A stretch of DNA of 46,809 bases from a virus (Duplodnaviria > Heunggongvirae > Uroviricota > Caudoviricetes). The notes below the pieces were generated by a model. It was not told where the DNA came from. It searched no databases and saw nothing but the letters and a program-made list of their open reading frames with translations. Positions 1 through 46,809 of this stretch are shown here, piece by piece. Position 1 is the stretch's first letter. The number at the start of each line of letters is the position of its first letter. The stretch is from the IMG/VR virus record IMGVR_UViG_2531839193_000010, one strand, 5' to 3'. The translations under genes and the position numbers were made by a program.

Positions 1-89
1 TTGCCTCCCCCCGTTGATGGGTAAAATAGCCGCAATTTTTCGTTTTCAACAAGCGCGGCGCGATGCCGCTTACTCAAGAAGAAAGAATT

Positions 90-164
90 ATGACGTTGTC
101 TCCTTATTTGCAAGAGGTGGCGAAGCGCCGCACTTTTGCCATTATTTCTCACCCCAATAATTAA
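90..164 (+). pseudogene. prfC: 5' remnant of prfC (peptide chain release factor 3): 22 native codons, then divergence and stop at the prophage junction (attL about 150-165)
   Basis: ATG at 90 translates [22 protein letters not shown], which I recognise as the PrfC N-terminus; the expected GTPase P-loop (DAGKTT) is replaced by NN-stop, followed by AT-rich DNA and an integrase gene. Confidence 0.6.
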
Positions 165-318
165 GCCCAAATAAAAGCTCTTTTACTCTTTCAAAATCCT
201 TTCAATTAATTGAGTGATAATTATATAACTCATTTAATAACATGATGTTATGTGATTTCTTTGATTGAAAATTCTTTCATGTAACTTTAAATTGATCAGG
301 TTACTTTCATCAAAAATC

Positions 319-375
319 TGTACATGTGCTTGTACATAATGTACAAAACAGCAGAGGTTTTTTGTTATTTGTACA
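319..375. promoter_or_regulatory. Cluster of four palindromic TGTACA hexamers just upstream of int (candidate operator or arm-type site)
   Basis: TGTACA at 319-324, 331-336, 340-345 and 370-375; the middle pair forms TTGTACA-N3-TGTACAA (330-346). Ends 10 nt before the int ATG. Confidence 0.35.
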
Positions 376-384
376 AGGTGAGTA

Positions 385-1608
385 ATGGCGCTGTCTGATG
401 CGTGGTTGCGTTCAGTTGTTGGAAAGGAACGTGATAAGGTTTTGGTTAAATCCGCTCGTGATGGTCTGTCTGTTAGAGTATCACCGAAAGGTCGCGTAGT
501 GTTCCAATATCGTTATCAGTGGGCGGGGAAAGGTGAGCGTCTTGATATCGGAACTTACCCGGCAACTGGACTAAAAGAGGCCAGAGAAGAAGTTATCCGT
601 CTTCGTGGTGAACTCGAGTCAAACCGCAATCCACGATTGGTCAAGCTGGCAGAAAAACGTAAAGCTACTGAAGCCATGACGGTAGAATCTGTGATCCGTG
701 CTTGGTATGAAGCATATTGTGTAAAAAATAAAAAAGGTTCTGAACAGATACTCCGCTCGTTTGAGCTGCACCTGTTCTCTAAAATCGGGAATATCCCTCA
801 CGATGCAGCTACATTGCATGATTGGTTAGAAGTCCTGGAGCCTCTTAGCACTAAGACTCCAGCAATAGCAGACCGATTGCTAATTAACGCAAAGCAGGCC
901 CATGTCTGGGCGTATAAGAGAAAGCTCATTGAAACTCGCCCGCTGTCGGATATCACGGGTAAAGATATGGATATCCGTAAAGGTCAGAAGAAACGGTTTC
1001 TGACACATGATGAAATTAAAATCCTTTATGCTGCGATCGATGGTTCTCGAATGGTTCCTAAATACCGGGCCTTCATTAAACTATTGCTGCATTTTGGTTG
1101 CCGTAGTTCAGAGCTAATTACTGCCAAGGTGGACGATTTTGATTTCATTAATAAAATATGGACTGTACCACCAGAACGACATAAGACAGGGGATATAACA
1201 GGCGAACCGCTAAAGCGGCCCATTATTGAACCGGTTGAAGAGCTTATAAAATACGTTATCTCTATGAACAACGGTTCCGATATGCTTTTTACTAAGGAAG
1301 GAAGCAGGGAACCAGTTGGTCGGACATCATTGCAGTCGCTGCCTTACAATTTAATGCAGTACGCATGGCGGCGTTTGGGGTATCAATTTCCTCATTGGTC
1401 TCTTCATGATTTGAGACGAACAGCACGAACAAACTTTTCTGATCTTACTGCGCCTCATATTGCTGAAATAATGCTCGGTCATAAACTGCCAGGTGTATGG
1501 CAAGTTTATGACAAGAGTGATTATCTAGAAGAACAGCGTAAAGCCTACCAGGCATGGTGGGAGAGAGTTGAATCGATTGTTACTTGTACTCGTTCAGGCT
1601 CGAAATGA
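385..1608 (+). CDS. int: Phage tyrosine integrase (site-specific recombinase)
   Basis: 407-aa ORF with SD-like AAGGTGAG upstream; C-terminal catalytic region has HDLRRT, LGH and a Tyr near the C-terminus, typical of tyrosine recombinases; adjacent to the prfC junction. Confidence 0.9.
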   Translation: MALSDAWLRSVVGKERDKVLVKSARDGLSVRVSPKGRVVFQYRYQWAGKGERLDIGTYPATGLKEAREEVIRLRGELESNRNPRLVKLAEKRKATEAMTVESVIRAWYEAYCVKNKKGSEQILRSFELHLFSKIGNIPHDAATLHDWLEVLEPLSTKTPAIADRLLINAKQAHVWAYKRKLIETRPLSDITGKDMDIRKGQKKRFLTHDEIKILYAAIDGSRMVPKYRAFIKLLLHFGCRSSELITAKVDDFDFINKIWTVPPERHKTGDITGEPLKRPIIEPVEELIKYVISMNNGSDMLFTKEGSREPVGRTSLQSLPYNLMQYAWRRLGYQFPHWSLHDLRRTARTNFSDLTAPHIAEIMLGHKLPGVWQVYDKSDYLEEQRKAYQAWWERVESIVTCTRSGSK

Positions 1609-1722
1609 TATTTTGCGTAGCTAGAACGCAATCAAATCTAGCAGTCCGCTTTGTTCGGAGTTCGGACATTATGAGTTGGCAAGTAAAGTAGCTTGCTAGG
1701 AAGCCGGATTTGCACGGTCGGT

Positions 1723-1790
1723 ATAATAAGATGTAACCCCTTGCCTTCATTTACTCGAATGAACGTGCACATTGGATAGGAGGAAAAGGA
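1723..1790 (+). promoter_or_regulatory. Candidate own promoter and RBS for the SIR2-domain gene
   Basis: Perfect TATAAT at 1723-1728 (no clean -35 at 17 bp spacing) and AGGAGG at 1778-1783, 7 nt before the ATG at 1791. Confidence 0.3.
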
Positions 1791-4700
1791 ATGCAATTCA
1801 TTACCAACGGCCCTGATATTCCTGATGAGCTTTTGCAGGCGCACGAGGAAGGGCGCGTTGTGTTCTTCTGTGGAGCAGGCATTTCCTACCCTGCTGGTTT
1901 ACCTGGTTTCAAAGGGTTGGTAGAACTAATTTACCAGAGGAACGGAACAACACTTTCAGAAATTGAGCGTGAGGTTTTCGAGCGTGGGCAATTTGACGGC
2001 ACATTAGATTTGCTGGAACGGCGCTTACCAGGGCAGCGTATAGCCGTCCGACGCGCGTTGGAAAAAGCCCTTAAGCCAAAGCTCCGTCGTAGGGGCGCTA
2101 TTGATACTCAGGCGGCGCTGTTACGTTTAGCCCGTAGCCGCGAGGGTGCCCTTCGATTGGTCACTACCAACTTTGACCGTCTCTTTCATGTGGCAGCTAA
2201 ACGTACAGGCCAGGCTTTTCAGGCCTATGTAGCGCCGATGCTGCCAATTCCAAAAAACAGCCGCTGGGATGGACTTGTATACCTGCATGGGCTGTTACCG
2301 GAAAAGGCGGATGATACTGCCCTGAATCGTCTGGTTGTTACCAGCGGTGACTTTGGCTTGGCTTATCTCACTGAGCGTTGGGCAGCTCGCTTTGTGAGTG
2401 AGTTATTTCGTAACTATGTGGTCTGCTTCGTTGGCTACAGCATCAACGACCCGGTACTGCGCTACATGATGGATGCGCTTGCAGCAGATCGGAGGCTCGG
2501 TGAAGTCACACCACAAGTATGGGCACTGGGGGAGTGTGAGCCGGGGCAGGAGCACCGGAAAGCCATCGAGTGGGAGGCCAAAGGGGTCACTCCTATCCTT
2601 TACACCGTACCGGCGGGCTCCACTGATCATTCAGTGCTGCATCAAACGTTGCACGCTTGGGCAGATACTTATCGAGATGGTATACAGGGCAAAGAGGCTA
2701 TAGTCGTCAAACATGCTCTGGCCCGCCCGCAGGACAGCACTCGTCAGGACGATTTCGTTGGTCGGATGTTGTGGGCCTTGTCAGATAAATCAGGTTTACC
2801 AGCAAAACGCTTTGCGGAACTCAATCCTGCACCGCCGCTGGATTGGTTATTGAAAGCTTTCTCGGACGAACGATTTAAATACAGCGATCTGCCACGCTTT
2901 TGTGTATCTCCGCATGTCGAAATTGACCCGAAACTCCGATTCAGTCTGGTTCAGCGTCCTGCGCCCTATGAGCTGGCCCCGCAGATGTCGCTGGTTTCTG
3001 GATGTGTCAGTGCTAGCAAATGGGATGACGTAATGTCCCATATAGCCCGTTGGCTAGTTCGTTATCTGGGCGACCCTAGGTTGATCATATGGATTGCTGA
3101 ACGCGGCGGACAAATACACGACCGTTGGATGTTTCTGATTGAGAGCGAACTAGATCGCTTAGCAGCACTGATGCGGGAGCGTAAGACTTCTGAGTTAGAT
3201 GAAATTCTCTTGCATTCCCCCCTGGCTATTCCTGGTCCACCTATGTCTACTTTATGGCGGCTTCTGCTTAGTGGTCGTGTGAAATCGCCATTGCAGAACC
3301 TGGATTTGTATCGTTGGCAAAACCGCTTAAAGAATGAAGGCTTGACGACTACATTGCGCTTGGAGTTACGCGAGTTGCTTTCTCCCAAGGTTATGTTGAG
3401 GCGGCCGTTTCGCTATAGTGAAGACGATTCGAGCAGCACTGATGAACCCTTGCGAATCAAGCAATTGGTGGATTGGGAGCTGGTGCTGACTGCTGATTAC
3501 GTACGTTCAACCCTGTTCGACCTTGCTGACGAGTCATGGAAATCGTCCTTGCCATACCTGTTGGAAGATTTTCAGCAGTTGTTGCGTGATGCACTGGACT
3601 TGTTGCGGGAGTTGGGAGAGTCCGACGATCGTCACGACCGCTCGCATTGGGATTTGCCGTCCATCACTCCGCACTGGCAGAACCGGGGGTTCCGCGATTG
3701 GGTGAGCCTGATTGAATTACTTCGGGATTCATGGTTAGCCGTTCGATCCAAAGACAGCGATCAGGCCACGCGCATTGCTCAGAATTGGTTTGAGTTGCCA
3801 TATCCCACCTTCAAACGTCTGGCACTGTTTGCCGCAAGCCAAGACAACTGCATACCACCTGAGCGGTGGGTTAATTGGTTGTTAGAGGACGGTTCATGGT
3901 GGTTGTGGGCCACGGATACTAGGCGAGAGGTATTCAGACTGTTTGTTTTGCAGGGACGACATCTGACAGGAATTGCACAAGAGCGTCTGGAAACTGCTAT
4001 CTTGGCAGGGCCTCCGCGCGAGATGTACGAGGATAATTTGGAAGCAGACAGGTGGCATTATTTGGTGGCTCATTCCGTCTGGTTGTGTCTAGCGAAGCTC
4101 AGGGGAGCGGGCCTTGTTTTGGGAGAGTCTGCGGCTACACGTTTGACGGAAATATCCACAGCATACCCAAAATGGCAACTGGCAACCAACGAGCGTGATG
4201 AATTCTCTCACTGGATGAGCGGAACCGGTGATCCAGGCTTCGAGGAGAGTATAGATGTCGACATTGCGCCCCGTAAGTGGCAGGAATTAGTGCAATGGCT
4301 CGCAAAGCCTATGCCAGAAAGACTGCCTTTCTATGAGGACACTTGGAGTGATGTTTGCCGTACGCGCTTTTTTCACAGTCTGTATGCGTTAAGTAAACTA
4401 TCACAAGATGATGTGTGGCCTGTTGGTCGGTGGCGTGAAGCTCTGCAGACTTGGGCTGAACCAGGGATGATTTTGCGTTCGTGGCGGTACGCCGCACCGT
4501 TGGTGCTTGACATGCCTGACGCAGTACTTCAGGAGATTTCCCACGCTGTCACTTGGTGGATGGAGGAGGCTTCGAAGACCATCCTCTGCCACGAGGAGAT
4601 TCTACTGGCCCTTTGTCGTCGGGTTCTGATGATAGAAACAAGCCCAGAGTCTAGCACCATTCGAAACGGAATTGAGACCTATGATCCTGTTTCTACGGCG

Positions 4701-5618
4701 ATCAATCATCCCATTGGGCATGTCACGCAATCACTGATCACCCTATGGTTCAAACAGAACCCGAATGACAATGATTTGCTTCCTGTTGAATTGAAAACAC
4801 TTTTCACCAAATTGTGTAATGTACAGATAGAGCTATTCCGCCATGGTCGGGTGTTGCTGGGGTCGCGGCTGATCGCATTTTTTCGCGTAGATCGACCTTG
4901 GACCGAACAGTATCTATTGCCCTTGTTTGCTTGGAGTAATCCCGTCGAAGCAAAAGCTGTGTGGGAAGGCTTCCTCTGGTCGCCACGCCTGTATGAACCG
5001 TTGCTGATAGCTTTCAAGTCAGATTTTTTGGAGAGCGCCAATCACTATTCTGATCTTGGCGAGCACCGGCAGCAATTCGCTACTTTCCTGACTTATGCAG
5101 CTCTGGGCCCTACCGAGGGATATACCGTGGAGGAGTTCCGAACGGCAATTAGTGCTCTTCCACAAGAAGGTCTGGAGGTAGCCGCGCAGGCGTTATACCA
5201 GGCACTTGAAGGTGCGGGCGATCAGCGCGAGGAGTATTGGAAAAATCGTGTCCAGCCATTTTGGCAACAGGTTTGGCCAAAGTCCCGCAACTTGGCCACC
5301 CCACGCATATCCGAATCGTTGACTCGTATGGTGATTGCTGCCCGAGGTGAATTTCCGGCGGCTTTGGCAGTGGTGCAGGACTGGCTGCAACCGCTCGAAC
5401 ACCTTAGCTACGACGTTCGCCTTTTGCTAGAATCAGATATTTGCAGCCGATATCCTGCGGACGCTCTATCCCTGCTGAATGCCGTGATTGCCGAACAACA
5501 CTGGGGGCCTCGAGAGTTGGGGCAATGCTTGCTTCAAATTGTTCAAGCTGCTCCACAACTGGAGCAAGATGTTCGTTATCAGCGATTAAATGAATATTCT
5601 CGAAGGCGCAGCGTGTGA
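1791..5618 (+). CDS. Large SIR2-like (sirtuin/NADase) domain protein with ~950-aa alpha-helical Trp/Leu-rich C-terminal region; candidate single-gene anti-phage defence protein (DSR-like architecture)
   Basis: 1275-aa intact ORF with strong RBS. N-terminus carries sirtuin-type motifs: CGAGISYPAGLPGFKG (Gly-rich NAD loop, residues 27-42), TTNFD (Asn127) and YLHG (His166). Sits between int and xis, a typical prophage cargo position. Confidence 0.8.
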   Translation: MQFITNGPDIPDELLQAHEEGRVVFFCGAGISYPAGLPGFKGLVELIYQRNGTTLSEIEREVFERGQFDGTLDLLERRLPGQRIAVRRALEKALKPKLRRRGAIDTQAALLRLARSREGALRLVTTNFDRLFHVAAKRTGQAFQAYVAPMLPIPKNSRWDGLVYLHGLLPEKADDTALNRLVVTSGDFGLAYLTERWAARFVSELFRNYVVCFVGYSINDPVLRYMMDALAADRRLGEVTPQVWALGECEPGQEHRKAIEWEAKGVTPILYTVPAGSTDHSVLHQTLHAWADTYRDGIQGKEAIVVKHALARPQDSTRQDDFVGRMLWALSDKSGLPAKRFAELNPAPPLDWLLKAFSDERFKYSDLPRFCVSPHVEIDPKLRFSLVQRPAPYELAPQMSLVSGCVSASKWDDVMSHIARWLVRYLGDPRLIIWIAERGGQIHDRWMFLIESELDRLAALMRERKTSELDEILLHSPLAIPGPPMSTLWRLLLSGRVKSPLQNLDLYRWQNRLKNEGLTTTLRLELRELLSPKVMLRRPFRYSEDDSSSTDEPLRIKQLVDWELVLTADYVRSTLFDLADESWKSSLPYLLEDFQQLLRDALDLLRELGESDDRHDRSHWDLPSITPHWQNRGFRDWVSLIELLRDSWLAVRSKDSDQATRIAQNWFELPYPTFKRLALFAASQDNCIPPERWVNWLLEDGSWWLWATDTRREVFRLFVLQGRHLTGIAQERLETAILAGPPREMYEDNLEADRWHYLVAHSVWLCLAKLRGAGLVLGESAATRLTEISTAYPKWQLATNERDEFSHWMSGTGDPGFEESIDVDIAPRKWQELVQWLAKPMPERLPFYEDTWSDVCRTRFFHSLYALSKLSQDDVWPVGRWREALQTWAEPGMILRSWRYAAPLVLDMPDAVLQEISHAVTWWMEEASKTILCHEEILLALCRRVLMIETSPESSTIRNGIETYDPVSTAINHPIGHVTQSLITLWFKQNPNDNDLLPVELKTLFTKLCNVQIELFRHGRVLLGSRLIAFFRVDRPWTEQYLLPLFAWSNPVEAKAVWEGFLWSPRLYEPLLIAFKSDFLESANHYSDLGEHRQQFATFLTYAALGPTEGYTVEEFRTAISALPQEGLEVAAQALYQALEGAGDQREEYWKNRVQPFWQQVWPKSRNLATPRISESLTRMVIAARGEFPAALAVVQDWLQPLEHLSYDVRLLLESDICSRYPADALSLLNAVIAEQHWGPRELGQCLLQIVQAAPQLEQDVRYQRLNEYSRRRSV

Positions 5619-5785
5619 AAGTGACAGGCGTTGGACAGTGCGAACTGTGGAGCCTAACAAGGTAAAGACACTCTAACTGATAATGCTGCGCCGCTCGTGC
5701 AATGCAATACAGTTTTTATCTAGCGGTGAATTATGGTGTTAAAAGTTAGCCCCTGACACAGGGTGGGTAGTTGGCTCTGTGTCAT

Positions 5786-5823
5786 TGATGGGTATTAGTT
5801 CTGATATGAGCTAATACCCATCA
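5786..5823. repeat. Perfect 13-bp inverted repeat with 12-nt spacer at the 3' end of the early-left operon
   Basis: TGATGGGTATTAG (5786-5798) and CTAATACCCATCA (5811-5823); right arm overlaps the stop codon of the AlpA-like gene; no U-run on either strand, so not a classic intrinsic terminator. Confidence 0.5.
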
Positions 5824-6015
5824 CTCAATAACTCCAGCAAACCTGTATATCTTGCGTGATGCCCATTTATTTGGGCAGGATTTAATATCAGGATCTGGAA
5901 AGTCAGGCCTGTATTTCTGGCCAGTTCTCCTGTTTACGCTGTTCCAGCGAAGAACGGTCGATACTGAAACGCCACAGAAGTCGGCGACTTGTTTAGTTGT
6001 CATTAAGTTGTTCAT
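5821..6015 (-). CDS. AlpA-family HTH protein, probable excisionase/regulator
   Basis: 64-aa ORF with strong SD (AGGAGG) 7 nt upstream; HTH segment TTKQVADFCGVSVSTVLRWNS followed by a FPDP...K.W motif typical of AlpA/Xis-like proteins; last gene of the early-left operon. Confidence 0.55.
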   Translation of the reverse strand: MNNLMTTKQVADFCGVSVSTVLRWNSVNRRTGQKYRPDFPDPDIKSCPNKWASRKIYRFAGVIE

Positions 6016-6635
6016 TACTTCACCTCCTGCGGTGGCTCCGGTAGCGGCATCCAGTGGGTTACTTTCGATGCCGGTTCTTCCCCATCGTCAGTAACTGCCC
6101 ACCATTTGTTTCTCGACCAATCGTAATACCCTTCGAAGGTATCGCACTCAGTCCAGCCGTAAGACTTACCCCAACACCAAACATACTGTTTATCGTTCGG
6201 CATTCGCTCACTACAGCTTATCCAACCATCCTGAGTTACCGGAGAGTTGCCCGACAGCTTGTTCAACTTGTAAGTCTGACTTACAGGTTTGGCACCATGA
6301 AGCATGGTGGCGCGGCAGGCGTTCCAGCCTTCATCAAAACCGACTATGCCATTATTTAAAGACGGACGAGCATCTGGCACCACCAGTACTGGCTTGGCTA
6401 TATATAGCGGCTGAACATACCAGCCCATTGATAACCAACTGTCAGCAATGTTTTTGCTCCTGGTTATTGCCGGAATACCTAAGCCATTGTCTGAATGCAG
6501 CCATGCCACCGGCTCCTCTTCCAGCGATGCCAGAGCAATTTCATAAGCACGGCGCTCAATATCGTCTCGAACCTCTAGGCTGCTGATTCGTTCTTTGATT
6601 TCTTTAATCAGTTCTTTATTGGTAAATGTGGTCAT
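6015..6635 (-). CDS. Phage protein with C-terminal DUF551-like region
   Basis: 206-aa ORF start-stop coupled to the downstream gene; W/C-rich C-terminal segment (WISCSERMP...WMPLPEPP) recalled as DUF551-like. Confidence 0.65.
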   Translation of the reverse strand: MTTFTNKELIKEIKERISSLEVRDDIERRAYEIALASLEEEPVAWLHSDNGLGIPAITRSKNIADSWLSMGWYVQPLYIAKPVLVVPDARPSLNNGIVGFDEGWNACRATMLHGAKPVSQTYKLNKLSGNSPVTQDGWISCSERMPNDKQYVWCWGKSYGWTECDTFEGYYDWSRNKWWAVTDDGEEPASKVTHWMPLPEPPQEVK

Positions 6636-6997
6636 TATGCTCCAGCCTCCGGCGCTTTGGGCATTACTGCCCAGTGAGTGATATTGAAGTTTTCAAGGTC
6701 CCCGACCTGAAATGTCCACTGCCATTCTCCGGTTTCTTTTTGTCCCCAGGTGTACCAGAGAGAACGCCAGCCAATCAGCCAGCCTTCTCCGTTAGCATCA
6801 AATAACAGAACACTTTCATTTGCTGGTGGCAGTTCAGCTGACACTGGTATTATTTTGTTTTCCAGTGCCGCACATTTAGCTTCAAGCGCGTCGAATTTAC
6901 GTACCAGGTACTCAGCATTTGTTTCGTTCACTTTCAGATCTCGCGGTACACATTTCCCGCGAAGAAACCCTTCCATTTCGAAAACATTCATGCGCAT
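6635..6997 (-). CDS. Hypothetical phage early protein
   Basis: 120-aa ORF in operon context, overlapping neighbours by a few nt; no recognisable motif. Confidence 0.55.
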   Translation of the reverse strand: MRMNVFEMEGFLRGKCVPRDLKVNETNAEYLVRKFDALEAKCAALENKIIPVSAELPPANESVLLFDANGEGWLIGWRSLWYTWGQKETGEWQWTFQVGDLENFNITHWAVMPKAPEAGA

Positions 6998-7524
6998 TTG
7001 CGTAACTCCGATAACTCGTTAAAACGTTCCATAAACATCCCGTAGGCATGGCCAGGTGCCAGTGGAATCACGTTGAACATCTCTGTTGCCGGGATGCCTT
7101 CCAGTACAGGCCAGAAAGAGCCATCATCAAGCCCGAGATCGCGGCGTTCGGTTGCCAGCATGATAAGATCGGCATATTTCACGGGCGTACTCATAACTGG
7201 GGGTAACCCGTATTTCTCACGGATTACGGCATCTATTTTTTCTTCCATCCGTTTATAGTCAGGAAGAAGGCGTTTCAGTGGTGCGGGGATGTCCTGGCAA
7301 TACGCTTCTGTTGCATCATGCATTAACGCTTCAAAAGCAAACTCCTCCGGTACCAGCTGGCTGCAAAGCACCGCATGTTGGGCAACGCTGTAGAAGTGTG
7401 AAAGATGACCAGCAAAGCGACAGATATTTGAAAGGGAAACCGCGATATCGTTAATATCGATGTTGTCTTTATTTATCCTGTCATAATAAAAATGCTTCCC
7501 GGAAAAAGTTTTAATAAATGACAT
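6988..7524 (-). CDS. HD-domain phosphohydrolase (5'-deoxynucleotidase-like, YfdR-like)
   Basis: Start reassigned to the internal ATG at 7524 (MSFIKTF...) preceded by GGAG; contains H...HD metal-binding motifs (HLSHFYSVAQH, LMHDATE). Confidence 0.7.
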   Translation of the reverse strand: MSFIKTFSGKHFYYDRINKDNIDINDIAVSLSNICRFAGHLSHFYSVAQHAVLCSQLVPEEFAFEALMHDATEAYCQDIPAPLKRLLPDYKRMEEKIDAVIREKYGLPPVMSTPVKYADLIMLATERRDLGLDDGSFWPVLEGIPATEMFNVIPLAPGHAYGMFMERFNELSELRKCA

Positions 7525-7652
7525 TTTGTTCTCCACGTTATATGCGCTGCACCGCGCTGAATTCGGGTAAAAGGAAACCCTCACCATCCGGCGATTATTG
7601 AGTTAATTACGTTTCCATAAATGCCCCCGCAGGGGCATTTGCAGTAATGAAA

Positions 7653-8477
7653 TCAGGCGGTGAAAGTACCAATAAAGGTTTCTACTTTGCTGTCTTTGAA
7701 TTTCTCAACAAGCAGATCACGAAATTCGTTAGCCATTTCTTCCTGCACTGCTTCCAGCTGAATAATGCGCAGAACCAGTACAGGACGATCGCCAGTGATA
7801 ATGCTGAGGCGTAATTTAAATGGACGTTCTTTCAGACCTTCAAACGGAACGCATTTAAATTCAAATGCCACTGGCATAATATCTTTGGTCTTCGCTTCGA
7901 CAGACTCCATCAGGGAGCGTTTGCCGCTGAAGTCATTATCTTCAAAATCAGCGGTCTGGTTTGCTTCAATCGTGATTTTACGGACCGCCGCAGCCGCTTT
8001 TGTTGCCTGAATAGCGTCACCATTAGCATCAAAGCCCACAAGGTAGTCGGCCCAGTCTTCAATCCATTCTGCCAGTGACTTCTGGGAGTTACGCTCGCCA
8101 TTAACAGACAACAGAGCAGAGAACGGTGCTGTCTTTTTCAGTTTGAGTGTGGCGGTGTTATCTGCGTGACCTGGTTCACCAATAGTACCCAGGTTAAGCA
8201 CACTGACGGCTCGCATATTATCGGCATCGATAAAGCAGCGGGTGCCTTCATCTGCAAGATCTTTAGAATAACGGGTAAAGTCATCGATGCTGGCAGTGGA
8301 AAGCGCACCACGGAAACGGAAGCGATTTAAATTAAATTTTTCCAGATCATGAATGCGGAAATTCTCAGGCAATGCCACAGCATCGGCACCAATCTTACTG
8401 ATAATTTCATTAACACCCTGAGCAGAAATAAGGGCATGGATTTGATTAATTGCGGTTGCGTCTAAGTTCTGAGACAT
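7653..8477 (-). CDS. DUF2303 (YfdQ-like) phage protein
   Basis: 274-aa ORF; resembles E. coli CPS-53 prophage YfdQ from memory (not verified). Confidence 0.7.
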
Positions 8478-8543
8478 AATAAGTCCTCACTATATTAAAG
8501 ATATTCAGTGATAAGATGAATAATTAGTTTATTAAAAACGATA

Positions 8544-8906
8544 TTAACGACCTGCTGCGCGGAGTTTTCCGTCAGGTTCACCGGCAAGAGTCAGTAATTG
8601 TCCCTGGTCTTCCTGCAGAATAGTCAGGCGACCACCGCGATTGACATACATCGGCGTTTCGGTGGTGTCTTCTTCGGAAATTTTCCCGCGGTTAGTCGGG
8701 CGAACATATGAGAGTTTGTGTTTGATTTTCACACGGTTCTCATCAAACGGTTCGATTTCCAGGTTGAGCGAGACCTTACCTTTGGTTTTCGTGTTCATCA
8801 CACCGGAAGCGACTTCACTGAGAACAGCGCCGATTTTGGTTTCAAATACGCCGCCGTCCAGCTCCCCGATAAATGCCTGCACATCAGTACTGCGTTCGCT
8901 AGCCAT
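8544..8906 (-). CDS. Small phage early protein (YfdP-like)
   Basis: Start placed at the ATG at 8904-8906 (MASERST...) with AGGAG 7 nt upstream; the longer six-frame ORF to 9224 runs into a structured non-coding region. Confidence 0.6.
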   Translation of the reverse strand: MASERSTDVQAFIGELDGGVFETKIGAVLSEVASGVMNTKTKGKVSLNLEIEPFDENRVKIKHKLSYVRPTNRGKISEEDTTETPMYVNRGGRLTILQEDQGQLLTLAGEPDGKLRAAGR

Positions 8907-8954
8907 TTTGCTGCTCCTCATCATATCGACCCTGCAAGGTCGGTTGGTTTCTCC

Positions 8955-9087
8955 ACAAAACAGAGAAGAACACCTGCGGTGGCAGCCGCCCGGATGGATT
9001 GGGTTATGAGCCCGTCGTCCGATGATGCTCTTCTCTGTTTTGTAAAAAGTACGGTACCAGCCGGAAGCAAGGGTACAAGCTGGTACC
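8955..9087. other. Highly structured non-coding segment (candidate cis-regulatory RNA or sRNA) in the leader of the early-left operon
   Basis: 15-bp perfect long-range inverted repeat ACAAAACAGAGAAGA (8955-8969) / TCTTCTCTGTTTTGT (9029-9043), followed by a 9-bp stem GGTACCAGC (9053-9061) / GCTGGTACC (9079-9087); no convincing ORF on either strand. Confidence 0.35.
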
Positions 9088-17797: not shown

Positions 17798-18010
17798 TCA
17801 TGAAAGGTAAACATTGGCAGCTGATGGTCCACGCAGACCATTTATCCGGCAAAATTCCACGCGTAATCCGGTGGTAATTTCTTCTGCATCACGGAGATTG
17901 AGCGCTGAAACATGAAGCTGGACATCGATACGACCATCGGATGGGGTTATAAGACCTTTGCCGCTTTTGCCGTCAAAGGTTTTGAGAATTCCTGTCATTT
18001 TACGGGACAA
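17798..18010 (-). CDS. Cold-shock-domain protein (CspF/CspH-like)
   Basis: 70-aa ORF with CSD fold signature ([17 protein letters not shown]...) but divergent RNA-binding motifs, as in the CspF/H subfamily. Confidence 0.8.
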
Positions 18011-18310
18011 AAAAATTCCTTAATACTGATAACTTGGCGCACTATACACACGTTCCTGAAGAAAGCTATAGTTTTTTGATGGGGTTGAAGATGGCTGGAT
18101 GTCTAAAATAAACATTGCTTCATATGTTCAACTATGCGTTAATGATTGCGTCGGTTTGAAGAACAGACGATATACGAAGTAGTTTACTAAAGCAGTTCTC
18201 ATTTCAGGTGTTATTCACTTATTCCTTCTTTGAGTCTCTCCAATTAAGTACGAAGTCGTTTCTGTTATACAAGCCATTTATGCCGAAAGGCTCAAGTTAA
18301 GGAATGTAGA

Positions 18311-18526
18311 ATGTCAAATAAAATGACTGGTTTAGTAAAATGGTTTAACGCTGATAAAGGTTTTGGCTTTATTTCTCCTGTTGATGGTAGTAAAGATGTG
18401 TTTGTGCATTTTTCTGCGATTCAGAATGATAATTATCGAACCTTATTTGAAGGACAAAAGGTTACCTTCTCTGTAGAGAGTGGTGCTAAAGGTCCAGCAG
18501 CAGCAAATGTCATCATTACTGATTAA
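18311..18526 (+). CDS. Cold shock protein (CspB-like)
   Basis: 71-aa [41 protein letters not shown]... with canonical RNP1/RNP2 motifs; long AT-rich 5' leader. Confidence 0.85.
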
Positions 18527-18808
18527 AATTCATAGTTTGTCTGTATACGATAACGAAGAAGGCTGATGCCTGAGTGGAGATACAGACAGAGTGGTGAATA
18601 TTGGATCTCTTTAATAAATAGTAAGGAGGTCCAATACATGAAACAATGGCCAGCATATTTGGCAATAACTTAATCAGGAAAAGTATGCTAACCATTGTGG
18701 TGAAGTGCAGGTTTGCTGCATGAATAGTTTTACAGCAGAAGCTAACTGCTGGCATAGCAAAACAAAGTGCGTAAGTGGATGACTCCCACAAAAAGCACCA
18801 CAATATTA

Positions 18809-20773: not shown

Positions 20774-20910
20774 CTTATTATCCTGCATTGTTAAAAACGG
20801 CAGAATCCTATGTGACAACTAGACTGGCCCCCTGAATCTCCAGACAACCAGTATCACTTAAATAAGTGATAGTCTTAATACTAGTTTTTAGACTAGTCAT
20901 TGGAGTACAG

Positions 20911-21276
20911 ATGATTGATGTCTTAGGGCCGGAGAAACGCAGACGGCGTACCACACAGGAAAAGATCGCAATTGTTCAGCAGAGCTTTGAACCGGGGATG
21001 ACGGTCTCCCTCGTTGCCCGGCAACATGGTGTAGCAGCCAGCCAGTTATTTCTCTGGCGTAAGCAATACCAGGAAGGAAGTCTTACTGCTGTCGCCGCCG
21101 GAGAACAGGTTGTTCCTGCCTCTGAACTTGCTGCCGCCATGAAGCAGATTAAAGAACTCCAGCGCCTGCTCGGCAAGAAAACGATGGAAAATGAACTCCT
21201 CAAAGAAGCCGTTGAATATGGACGGACAAAAAAGTGGATAGCGCACGCGCCCTTATTGCCCGGGGATGGGGAGTAA
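20911..21276 (+). CDS. insC: IS2 OrfA (InsC) transposase HTH subunit
   Basis: 121 aa, [26 protein letters not shown]...; A6G slippery motif at 21228-21234 near the 3' end for OrfAB frameshifting. Confidence 0.85.
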
Positions 21277-22139
21277 GCTTAGTCAGCCGTTGTCTCCGGG
21301 TGTCGCGTGCGCAGTTGCACGTCATTCTCAGACGAACCGATGACTGGATGGATGGCCGCCGCAGTCGTCACACTGATGATACGGATGTGCTTCTCCGTAT
21401 ACACCATGTTATCGGAGAGCTGCCCACGTATGGTTATCGTCGGGTATGGGCGCTGCTTCGCAGACAGGCAGAACTTGATGGTATGCCTGCGATCAATGCC
21501 AAACGTGTTTACCGGATCATGCGCCAGAATGCGCTGTTGCTTGAGCGAAAACCTGCTGTACCGCCATCGAAACGGGCACATACAGGCAGAGTGGCCGTGA
21601 AAGAAAGCAATCAGCGATGGTGCTCTGACGGGTTCGAGTTCTGCTGTGATAACGGAGAGAGACTGCGTGTCACGTTCGCGCTGGACTGCTGTGATCGTGA
21701 GGCACTGCACTGGGCGGTGACTACCGGCGGCTTCAACAGTGAAACAGTACAGGACGTCATGCTGGGAGCGGTGGAACGCCGCTTCGGCAACGATCTTCCG
21801 TCGTCTCCAGTGGAGTGGCTGACGGATAATGGTTCATGCTACCGGGCTAATGAAACACGCCAGTTCGCCCGGATGTTGGGACTTGAACCGAAGAACACGG
21901 CGGTGCGGAGTCCGGAGAGTAACGGAATAGCAGAGAGCTTCGTGAAAACGATAAAGCGTGACTACATCAGTATCATGCCCAAACCAGACGGGTTAACGGC
22001 AGCAAAGAACCTTGCAGAGGCGTTCGAGCATTATAACGAATGGCATCCGCATAGTGCGCTGGGTTATCGCTCGCCACGGGAATATCTGCGGCAGCGGGCT
22101 TGTAATGGGTTAAGTGATAACAGATGTCTGGAAATATAG
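21234..22139 (+). CDS. insD: IS2 OrfB (InsD) transposase catalytic subunit (expressed as OrfAB fusion by -1 frameshift)
   Basis: 301-aa ORF with integrase-core DDE region; matches IS2 InsD as recalled. Confidence 0.85.
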
Positions 22140-46263: not shown

Positions 46264-46809
46264 TTATGTGTGAGGTGAATTATAAATAATTTCAGAGTGA
46301 AATTTGGTAATGAATGTGGAGTCATCAGGAATGTCATGCAGTACCAATGCATGAGCTCCTATTTTTACATTATTCCCTATATGCACTTTGCCACCAAGGA
46401 TGGTGGCGTTACAGCCAATGGTTACATTATTTCCTATGACAATATCCATATCATTAAATTCACCGCGAAGTCCAATAGTTACCCCAGGCTTAATTGAACA
46501 ATTTTCACCTATTGTAACTTTGTGACCGATAACAACGCCATTGAGATAAGATATGTCGAACCCTTTACCAATATTTACAGTTAAGGGAACGGTTACATTG
46601 TATTTATCAAGAATGAAGCGTTCTATTTTTCCTGCAATCTTTCGCCGGTATCCGCCTTTATCAAAAAGATATTTTGCTACGCGCCACCAAAATAAATAAC
46701 GTGATCTTCTGTGTTTTATTGCGCGAACAATTGCTTTTCGCCAGGAGAAAGGGCGTTTATAACCTATTACTTCATAGTGTATACACTTTTTAAGTTCACT
46801 AATATTCAT
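46264..46809 (-). CDS. Hexapeptide-repeat (left-handed beta-helix) acetyltransferase; AT-rich cargo gene, possibly truncated at the window edge
   Basis: 181-aa ORF with tandem hexapeptide repeats (VTIGENCSIKPGVTIGLRGE..., IVIGNNVTIGCNATILGGKVHIGNNVKIGAHALV); markedly AT-rich relative to the tail module; the ATG coincides with the last bases of the window. Confidence 0.7.
   Translation of the reverse strand: MNISELKKCIHYEVIGYKRPFSWRKAIVRAIKHRRSRYLFWWRVAKYLFDKGGYRRKIAGKIERFILDKYNVTVPLTVNIGKGFDISYLNGVVIGHKVTIGENCSIKPGVTIGLRGEFNDMDIVIGNNVTIGCNATILGGKVHIGNNVKIGAHALVLHDIPDDSTFITKFHSEIIYNSPHT

Follow-up and report, generated by a model that had tools for sequence, protein, structure and literature searches.

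[quoted passage not shown]

The DNA analysed here (46,809 nucleotides, IMG/VR virus record IMGVR_UViG_2531839193_000010; referred to as the window) begins with the upstream region and the first codons of prfC, the gene for RF3, which then break off into other DNA. It was initially annotated as a prophage integrated within the 5' coding region of prfC, which would leave the gene either inactivated or rebuilt at the other prophage end with a phage-supplied promoter and N-terminus. The locus raises the question of what becomes of prfC in such a lysogen. We consider it highly probable that the window starts with an attL site located in prfC codons 18-22 and that a 5' cassette carried by the phage rebuilds prfC at attR.

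Positions 1-154 correspond to the yjjG-prfC intergenic region and the 5' end of prfC from E. coli K-12 strain MG1655, with one C fewer in a poly-C run as the sole difference. The first base of the window is located directly 3' of the yjjG stop codon. The ATG of prfC is found at 90-92, and codons 1-22 (90-155) are identical to those of K-12 up to base 155 (C in the window, G in K-12), which is the first phage-derived base. As it is the third base of Pro22, this change is silent. Codon 22 is followed by the phage-encoded AAT AAT TAA (Asn-Asn-stop), with the stop codon at 162-164. The alignment with K-12 thus bears out that 90-155 represents the first 22 codons of prfC, running into two asparagine codons and a stop. 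The distance to int, initially given as 220 bp, was found to be 221 bp (from the stop codon to the int ATG at 385). LC727881.1 and 23 prophage loci from IMG/VR contain an identical 24-codon ORF. A 24-nt junction probe occurs once within the window, with none expected by chance. A query consisting of attL and int was covered to at least 80% in 699 of 5,426 complete E. coli genomes (ca. 13%). Because junction and int are present in so many genomes, the junction is not an assembly artefact. Features of the window are listed in Table 1.

Table 1. Features of the window that are relevant to the prophage and to its left junction.
Feature	Position	Strand	Remarks
Host yjjG-prfC intergenic region (native prfC upstream region)	1..89	+	Matches MG1655 (locus L003, 1325-1414) except for one C
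Truncated prfC' mini-ORF at attL	90..164	+	22 native RF3 codons plus phage Asn-Asn-stop; from comparison with K-12
att core ATTATTTCTCACCC (14 bp)	141..154		prfC codons Ile18-Pro22; common to attB, attL, attR and attP
Phage P' arm of attL, AT-rich	155..384	+	TGTACA motifs clustered at 319-376, immediately 5' of int
int, tyrosine integrase (407 aa)	385..1608	+	Transcribed away from the junction, into the prophage
Dsr1, anti-phage defence sirtuin (1275 aa)	1791..5618	+	In the cargo slot between int and xis
Probable excisionase (64 aa), helix-turn-helix	5821..6015	-	97% identical to cdtI orf34, which is annotated as excisionase
Cold-shock protein gene	17798-18010	-	Downstream of Q
Cold-shock protein gene	18311-18526	+	Downstream of Q; Rfam cspA thermoregulator leader at 18150-18593 (161 bits)
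IS3-family orfA/orfB-like pair	20866-22139	+	Overlapping ORFs (136 and 301 aa) between the Bor-like and small terminase genes
Hexapeptide-repeat acetyltransferase	46264-46809	-	After the tail fibre assembly gene; annotated as serine acetyltransferase in relatives

Four forms of the attachment site were compared: attB from K-12, attL from the window, attR from strains H10407 and 40EC, and attP from the circular record of phage cdtI. The only stretch that is identical in all four is ATTATTTCTCACCC. On either side, host and phage differ (base 140: host C, phage A; base 155: host G, phage C). The core, which the initial annotation had expected to be definable from an uninterrupted prfC locus, could thus be delimited with attB from K-12. 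The same 14 bp are annotated in LC727881.1 as the duplication caused by the insertion. As judged from these site forms, strand exchange took place within the core. When the window was searched with up to three mismatches, no core copy was found besides that at attL, so that attR lies outside the window.

Over the 46.8 kb of the window, TTGTACA is matched six times, and four of these matches are located in the P' arm, at 330-376. Repeats shared by the two arms of the cdtI attP comprise one of 35 nt with 77% identity and several copies of TGTACA. The TGTACA repeats are probably arm-type integrase binding sites, and the same region is probably also the int promoter region. A consensus scan revealed a promoter-like site at 265-293 in the P' arm. 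By sequence comparison, positions 1-384 are assigned to the attL of a lambdoid prophage that belongs to the group of phage cdtI and the prfC-type Stx phages.

The integrase contains the Pfam domains Phage_integrase (E 3.8e-17), Arm-DNA-bind_3 (1.1e-14) and Phage_int_M. It is 98% identical to the integrase of phage cdtI over 404 aa and 46% identical to the SPN3UB/Gifsy-1-type integrase. Its domains, its close relative and a site in codons 18-23 all fit an assignment to the prfC-targeting tyrosine integrases, which form the cdtI phage/SXT cluster of the IntSXT subgroup. Dsr1 (PADLOC, 2735 bits, full length; NCBIfam equivalog, 2060 bits with a cut-off of 1400; Pfam SIR2_2) is cargo and is not part of the recombination machinery. 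In phage cdtI, the slot between int and xis holds a 710-aa gene of unrelated length, so this looks like a variable cargo position adjoining the integrase. The candidate excisionase has weak matches to HTH_17 and Xis_Gifsy_1, which are below the curated cut-offs.

PHROG matches were obtained for a repressor (phrog_4), CII-like, O-like and Q-like proteins, TerL and J (1617 bits). Further ORFs code for holin, lysozyme, Rz, Nu1, portal, tail proteins, Lom, tail fibre, Tfa and a Bor-like protein. In the window, int is followed by Dsr1, the xis-like gene (minus strand), a cI-like gene, CII-, O- and Q-like genes, the two cold-shock genes, the lysis genes, the Bor-like gene and an IS3-family IS, and then by Nu1, TerL, portal and tail genes, J, Lom, tail fibre, Tfa and, at the window end, the acetyltransferase. 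With its early/regulatory genes, a lysis cassette, a lambda-type terminase and a J-type tail, the element is classified as a long-tailed lambdoid prophage. No tRNA genes were found in the window. The initial assignment as a prophage within the 5' coding region of prfC is thus confirmed by the match to K-12, the junction, the integrase and the lambdoid genes. The IS is located between the Bor-like and the small terminase genes, so that the late region of the prophage is interrupted. We take its ORF pair, recognised by eye, to resemble IS2.

None of the complete E. coli genomes is matched over the entire length of the window. Positions 1-12000 match strain 2021CK-01784 at 99.7%, and the best match to the right 4.8 kb of the window is strain 40EC (97.5%). 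The DNA of the int region is 94.6-99.8% identical to Stx1a and Stx2c phages that were deposited as prfC-integrated. Apart from contigs that are cut at int, an IMG/VR scan with the integrase retrieved nothing but near-identical attL junctions from E. coli; no new attP was among them.

Because attR of this prophage is located beyond the right end of the window, the fate of prfC was addressed via related lysogens, in which attR is found ca. 0.8 kb past the point where the window ends (the acetyltransferase gene). In ETEC H10407 and in 40EC, the acetyltransferase gene at the right end is succeeded by a short HTH pseudogene and by a dinI-like gene in minus orientation, and 220 bp further on there is a full-length prfC. 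Its translation has 528 aa; the first 21 codons are phage DNA, and the sequence then continues with DAGKTT. In strain 2021CK-01784, the tail-fibre end is different, but the dinI-like gene is again present, and the full-length prfC (528 aa) at the far end likewise begins with 21 phage-derived codons. Strain SEC470 matches the H10407 attR query at 100%. An intact 528-aa prfC at attR is thus found in four related lysogens (H10407, 40EC, 2021CK-01784 and SEC470). In the free phage cdtI, attP reads ATG ACA AGC ... GCA, the core, and C AAT AAT TAA, which is a mini-ORF, and int follows ca. 220 bp downstream. A 5' end supplied by the element that restores the prfC frame is thus found in the cdtI attP and at attR of the four lysogens. 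Of the two outcomes considered at the outset, rebuilding is thus indirectly supported, via the relatives, for the reading frame and the N-terminus. At the other prophage end, as present in the relatives, an in-frame start codon is indeed fused to prfC from codon 23 onward.

Among the 5,426 complete E. coli genomes, an attR with phage arm and prfC was counted in 692 and an intact attB in 4,717. The two junctions (699 attL with int, 692 attR with prfC) thus occur almost one to one. In codons 8-16 (EVAKRRTFA), six of nine codons differ between the phage and the host copy, with eight nucleotide changes, all of them synonymous. This fits selection on the encoded protein. At the amino acid level, the phage cassette deviates only in residues 3-7, which are poorly conserved, and it lacks one codon. 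The exact 528-aa hybrid RF3 sequence is recorded on at least 1,000 contigs. Based on these comparisons, it is well supported that the prfC reading frame is rebuilt at attR.

We propose that the integrase recombines the phage attP with a host site in prfC codons 18-22 via the core ATTATTTCTCACCC. To the left of the core, attP would hold a look-alike of the prfC 5' end, consisting of an upstream region, a start codon and 21 codons. Integration strands the native promoter and the first 22 codons at attL as a 24-codon dead-end ORF, as seen in the window. At attR, it would join the phage 5' cassette in frame to the part of prfC that begins with codon 23. The predicted product is a full-length RF3 whose sequence is shorter by one residue and otherwise changed at residues 3-7 only. 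The attR of the window prophage itself is expected to be the same as in its relatives, ca. 0.8 kb past the right end. It would read ATGACAAGCCTTTTGGCCGCAGAGGTAGCGAAAAGAAGAACCTTTGCA-ATTATTTCTCACCC-GGACGCC and would follow the minus-strand dinI-like gene. The cassette presumably carries a working promoter, so that the hybrid RF3 would be made. At attL, the native prfC promoter would now point at int, which is encoded on the same strand. No terminator-like site was found between 164 and 385, and folding the RNA of this stretch, from the stop codon to int, gave only AT-rich hairpins. As the native promoter faces int with no terminator-like site in between, there may be low-level int transcription in the lysogen.

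Integrases related to that of the window were surveyed for their targets. A protein search retrieved 1,104 relatives at E <= 1e-20, many of them ca. 50% identical, from Gamma- and Betaproteobacteria. One genome per species was scanned with an alignment of 24 of these relatives. At 19 of the scanned loci (integrases 45-98% identical), int is preceded at a distance of ca. 200-240 bp by a 5' fragment of prfC in the same orientation. The fragments end 0-8 codons past the conserved stretch in all cases except Methylibium, where the frame runs on. The hosts include E. coli, Pantoea, Serratia, Pseudomonas (three loci), Marinobacterium, Halomonas, Microbulbifer, Kangiella, Rheinheimera, Methylomonas, Methylobacter, Variovorax, Methylibium and a Burkholderiaceae MAG. 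Shewanella P0075 is another prophage at prfC, and the Shewanella prophage integrase is 50% identical, with the same arrangement.

At nine further loci (L115-L117, L119, L120, L123, L125, L127, L138), with integrases that are 40-46% identical, the stump reads MKNIRNFSIIAHID(N-stop), which is the start of lepA as checked against K-12. This clade contains Gifsy-1 (94.9% to the lepA-type integrase from Enterobacter) and phage SPN3UB (99.7%). After Gifsy-like phages, the phage integrases nearest to the lepA type are those of the prfC-type Stx phages (46.9%). The attP of free SPN3UB (L171, 655-702) contains a mimic of the lepA 5' end (MKNIRNFSIIAHIDN-stop) with synonymous differences from the host gene. 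The targeted codons are homologous and precede the P-loop in both genes (prfC: FAIISHP, then DAGKTT; lepA: FSIIAHI, then DHGKST). Also, the element-side sequences that follow the core are similar (CACCCC-AATAATTAA for prfC and CACATC-GATAATTGA for lepA).

In Arsukibacterium indicum (L130, 2262-2324), a stump of 20 codons (MSPALSHLNIAIIAGEDNCV-stop) precedes an integrase with 43% identity, with ATTGCCATTATTGCT as core-like and GATAATTG as element-side sequence. Because the stump is located directly after lpxA, it is most likely the start of lpxB. This locus had also been considered as a third GTPase target (typA or selB), which was ruled out by the upstream gene being lpxA.

Close relatives of the integrase in Xenorhabdus, Photorhabdus and Morganella adjoin unrelated genes (comEC-like, moaC-like and LysR-like ends). 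Together with those from Acinetobacter and others, these relatives make up loci L096, L100-L112, L121, L122, L124, L132 and L133, where the neighbours also comprise alaS-like, plsX-like, ABC-F and icd-like ends and no tRNA is nearby; at L133, the integrase relative follows an icd-like 3' end. ARAGORN, applied to 51 related loci without a prfC or lepA fragment, reported only one atypical tRNA-like gene (L157). In a neighbour-joining tree, the clades for prfC, lepA and other targets are interleaved. It looks as if replacement of a gene's 5' end is a habit of this family and as if the target can shift between look-alike sites. We give an even chance to the further-reaching reading that this int clade specialises in 5'-end replacement and has moved among look-alike sites in genes for essential processes, these being the IISHPD codons of prfC, the IIAHID codons of lepA and, probably, IAIIAGE at the start of lpxB. 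For each target, attP may contain a matching start-of-gene cassette. If this holds, retargeting would need the core to evolve together with a cassette consisting of promoter and N-terminus, and prfC and lepA would lend themselves as a natural pair for studying how tyrosine integrases come to differ in specificity.

Expression of the rebuilt gene is a separate matter. Consensus scans revealed no convincing sigma-70 promoter in the 220-bp interval between the dinI-like gene and prfC. The best match on the plus strand (TCTACA-16-TATTAT; 9 of 12 positions) is located 185 nt upstream of the start codon and overlaps LexA boxes. Other candidates in this interval match at 8 of 12 positions, and the scores are overall not clearly above those of shuffled controls. 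Two LexA-box-like palindromes, ACTGTGTTTGTATACAGT and ACTGTATGAATAAACAGT, are found in the attR arm (L001, 11345-11400) between the dinI-like gene and the rebuilt prfC. They more plausibly serve the divergently oriented dinI-like gene. As they overlap promoter-like sites on both strands, an influence of the SOS response on prfC is a possibility. An element-supplied promoter for the rebuilt prfC has been reported for SXT only (PMC8409611). On balance, the rebuilt gene is probably expressed at a normal level.

Other explanations for the locus have to be considered. The prophage could simply disrupt prfC, as Stx phages do with wrbA and yehV, and the lysogen would then lack RF3. The window taken by itself invites this view, as only the 24-codon stump is visible there. 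However, insertions of the disrupting type leave no intact target ORF, whereas an intact prfC of 528 aa was found at attR in all related lysogens that were inspected. Disruption would also not account for the matching 5' cassette in the free phage, with synonymous-only changes in its conserved codons, nor for the occurrence of the hybrid protein on at least 1,000 contigs. We thus regard disruption as very improbable. An even more marginal candidate is an SXT/R391-type integrative conjugative element or another island instead of a phage. The target site is shared with SXT/R391, the integrase has been reported to fall into the same cluster (PMC8138268), and a defence gene adjoins int. However, the complete lambdoid gene set (cI, CII, O and Q homologues, lysis, Nu1/TerL, portal, J and tail fibre) and the close identity to the integrase of phage cdtI, which is inducible, argue for a phage. 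No conjugation genes were seen in the window and, with respect to the SetCD/SetR backbone of SXT/R391, only lambdoid modules were found. This option has practically no weight.

There is also the possibility that the frame is rebuilt but that prfC depends on a weak or SOS-controlled promoter shared with the dinI-like gene, so that lysogeny alters the level of RF3. The lack of a strong promoter match in the scans and the overlap of the best match with the two LexA-box-like palindromes are in line with this. The same design at lepA in phage SPN3UB, where the 5' end is also replaced, argues against it. As lepA is co-transcribed with the essential lepB, an element of the lepA type would have to supply a working promoter. 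Since lpxB is essential, the same need would apply there if it is confirmed as a target. That the conserved codons have diverged by synonymous changes only is a further argument for a protein that is produced and under selection. In the dusA islands, an element-borne promoter has been demonstrated, with expression below the native level (PMC8409611), and whether the rebuilt prfC is transcribed and translated was left open by Ogura et al. (PMC2323221). The gene is dispensable in E. coli (PMC2323221), so that a silent copy could be tolerated. Altogether, a changed RF3 level is possible but rather unlikely, and we prefer a rebuilt and probably functional prfC.

The replacement of the prfC 5' end is already known for this phage group and for SXT. 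The arrangement has reportedly been described for a phage of the cdtI group (Asakura, 2007), and SXT/R391, whose integration at the prfC 5' end is said to go back to Hochhut and Waldor (1999), has since been the textbook case. Where an Stx1 phage occupies prfC, it was noted that a short N-terminal region of RF3 is changed and that the authentic RBS and promoter are removed (PMC2323221; Ogura 2007). The integrase of the cdt1 phage, which targets prfC as does that of SXT, falls into one cluster with the latter (PMC8138268). In STEC of CC119, Stx1a and Stx2c phages are frequently found at prfC. The initial view of the target as unusual was thus overstated, given that Stx1 phages, cdtI phages and SXT/R391 have all been published as using this site and that prfC is not essential in E. 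coli. Only the comparison with lepA and lpxB may be new. A published link between lepA and prfC via the integrase was not found in the literature searched, although it may be known already.

Phage cdtI (NC_009514.1) shares with the window prophage not only the integrase (98%) and xis (97%) but also the 14-bp core, the P' arm and the right-end dinI-like gene. The Stx1a and Stx2c phages at prfC (from O103 and CC119 STEC; LC7278xx) are grouped with cdtI in sharing the core, the P' arm, xis and the dinI-like gene, next to int-region DNA with the identity given above. All of these are long-tailed lambdoid phages. The window prophage differs in having neither cdt nor stx, in its Dsr1 cargo, in the IS in its late region and in its tail-fibre end. 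SXT/R391, whose 17-bp site encloses the 14-bp core, uses the same prfC codons, with a 17-bp attP consensus ATcATcTCtCACCCtGA (PMC9058013) compared to ATTATTTCTCACCC(cAA) here. It is, however, a conjugative element of ca. 100 kb under control of SetCD/SetR and not a phage, and the element-side sequences differ. The likeness of the window integrase to IntSXT is taken from published clustering (PMC8138268). In our own searches, tblastn against a plasmid collection gave nothing above 28% except misfiled chromosomes, and no SXT-named homologue was among the 120 matches listed.

Gifsy-1 and SPN3UB are similar to the window prophage in their integrase (46%), in the distance of int from the core (ca. 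200 bp) and in the mimic of the target gene's 5' end in attP. Their target, however, is lepA, which codes for a paralogous translational GTPase, at homologous codons (IIAHID versus IISHPD). The dusA islands and prophages (IMEVchUSA3 and relatives) likewise insert at the 5' end of a conserved gene, but the target gene is another one. Phage 21 and e14 integrate inside a conserved coding gene, icd, where an element-borne duplicate of the gene end keeps the length of the ORF. There, it is the 3' end that is replaced, so that neither a promoter nor a start codon is needed from the element.

For genome annotation, it follows that RF3 should not be taken as lost where a short prfC stump borders a prophage. 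One survey classed prfC as "disrupted" by prophages. The sequences compared here contradict this class assignment, and prfC should not be counted among the genes disrupted by prophages. In the ca. 13% of complete E. coli genomes that contain the junction, RF3 would be produced from a gene whose start is supplied by the phage. Toxin-converting phages (cdt, stx1a, stx2c) share this site with the SXT/R391 resistance elements, so that it matters for the acquisition of either kind by a strain whether prfC is already occupied.

Two minor points concern the window itself. It begins exactly after the yjjG stop codon and ends exactly at the start codon of the acetyltransferase gene. That both ends coincide with gene boundaries suggests that the window represents a prophage call made at gene boundaries. 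Several IMG/VR contigs begin at the same first base. In our own scan of the K-12 copy, a promoter-like TTGCCT...TAAAAT site was found that corresponds to window positions 1-27, being a match to the consensus only. The poly-C run (window positions 7-12) is located within the spacer of this site and has six C residues here, compared to seven in MG1655 and LC727881.1.
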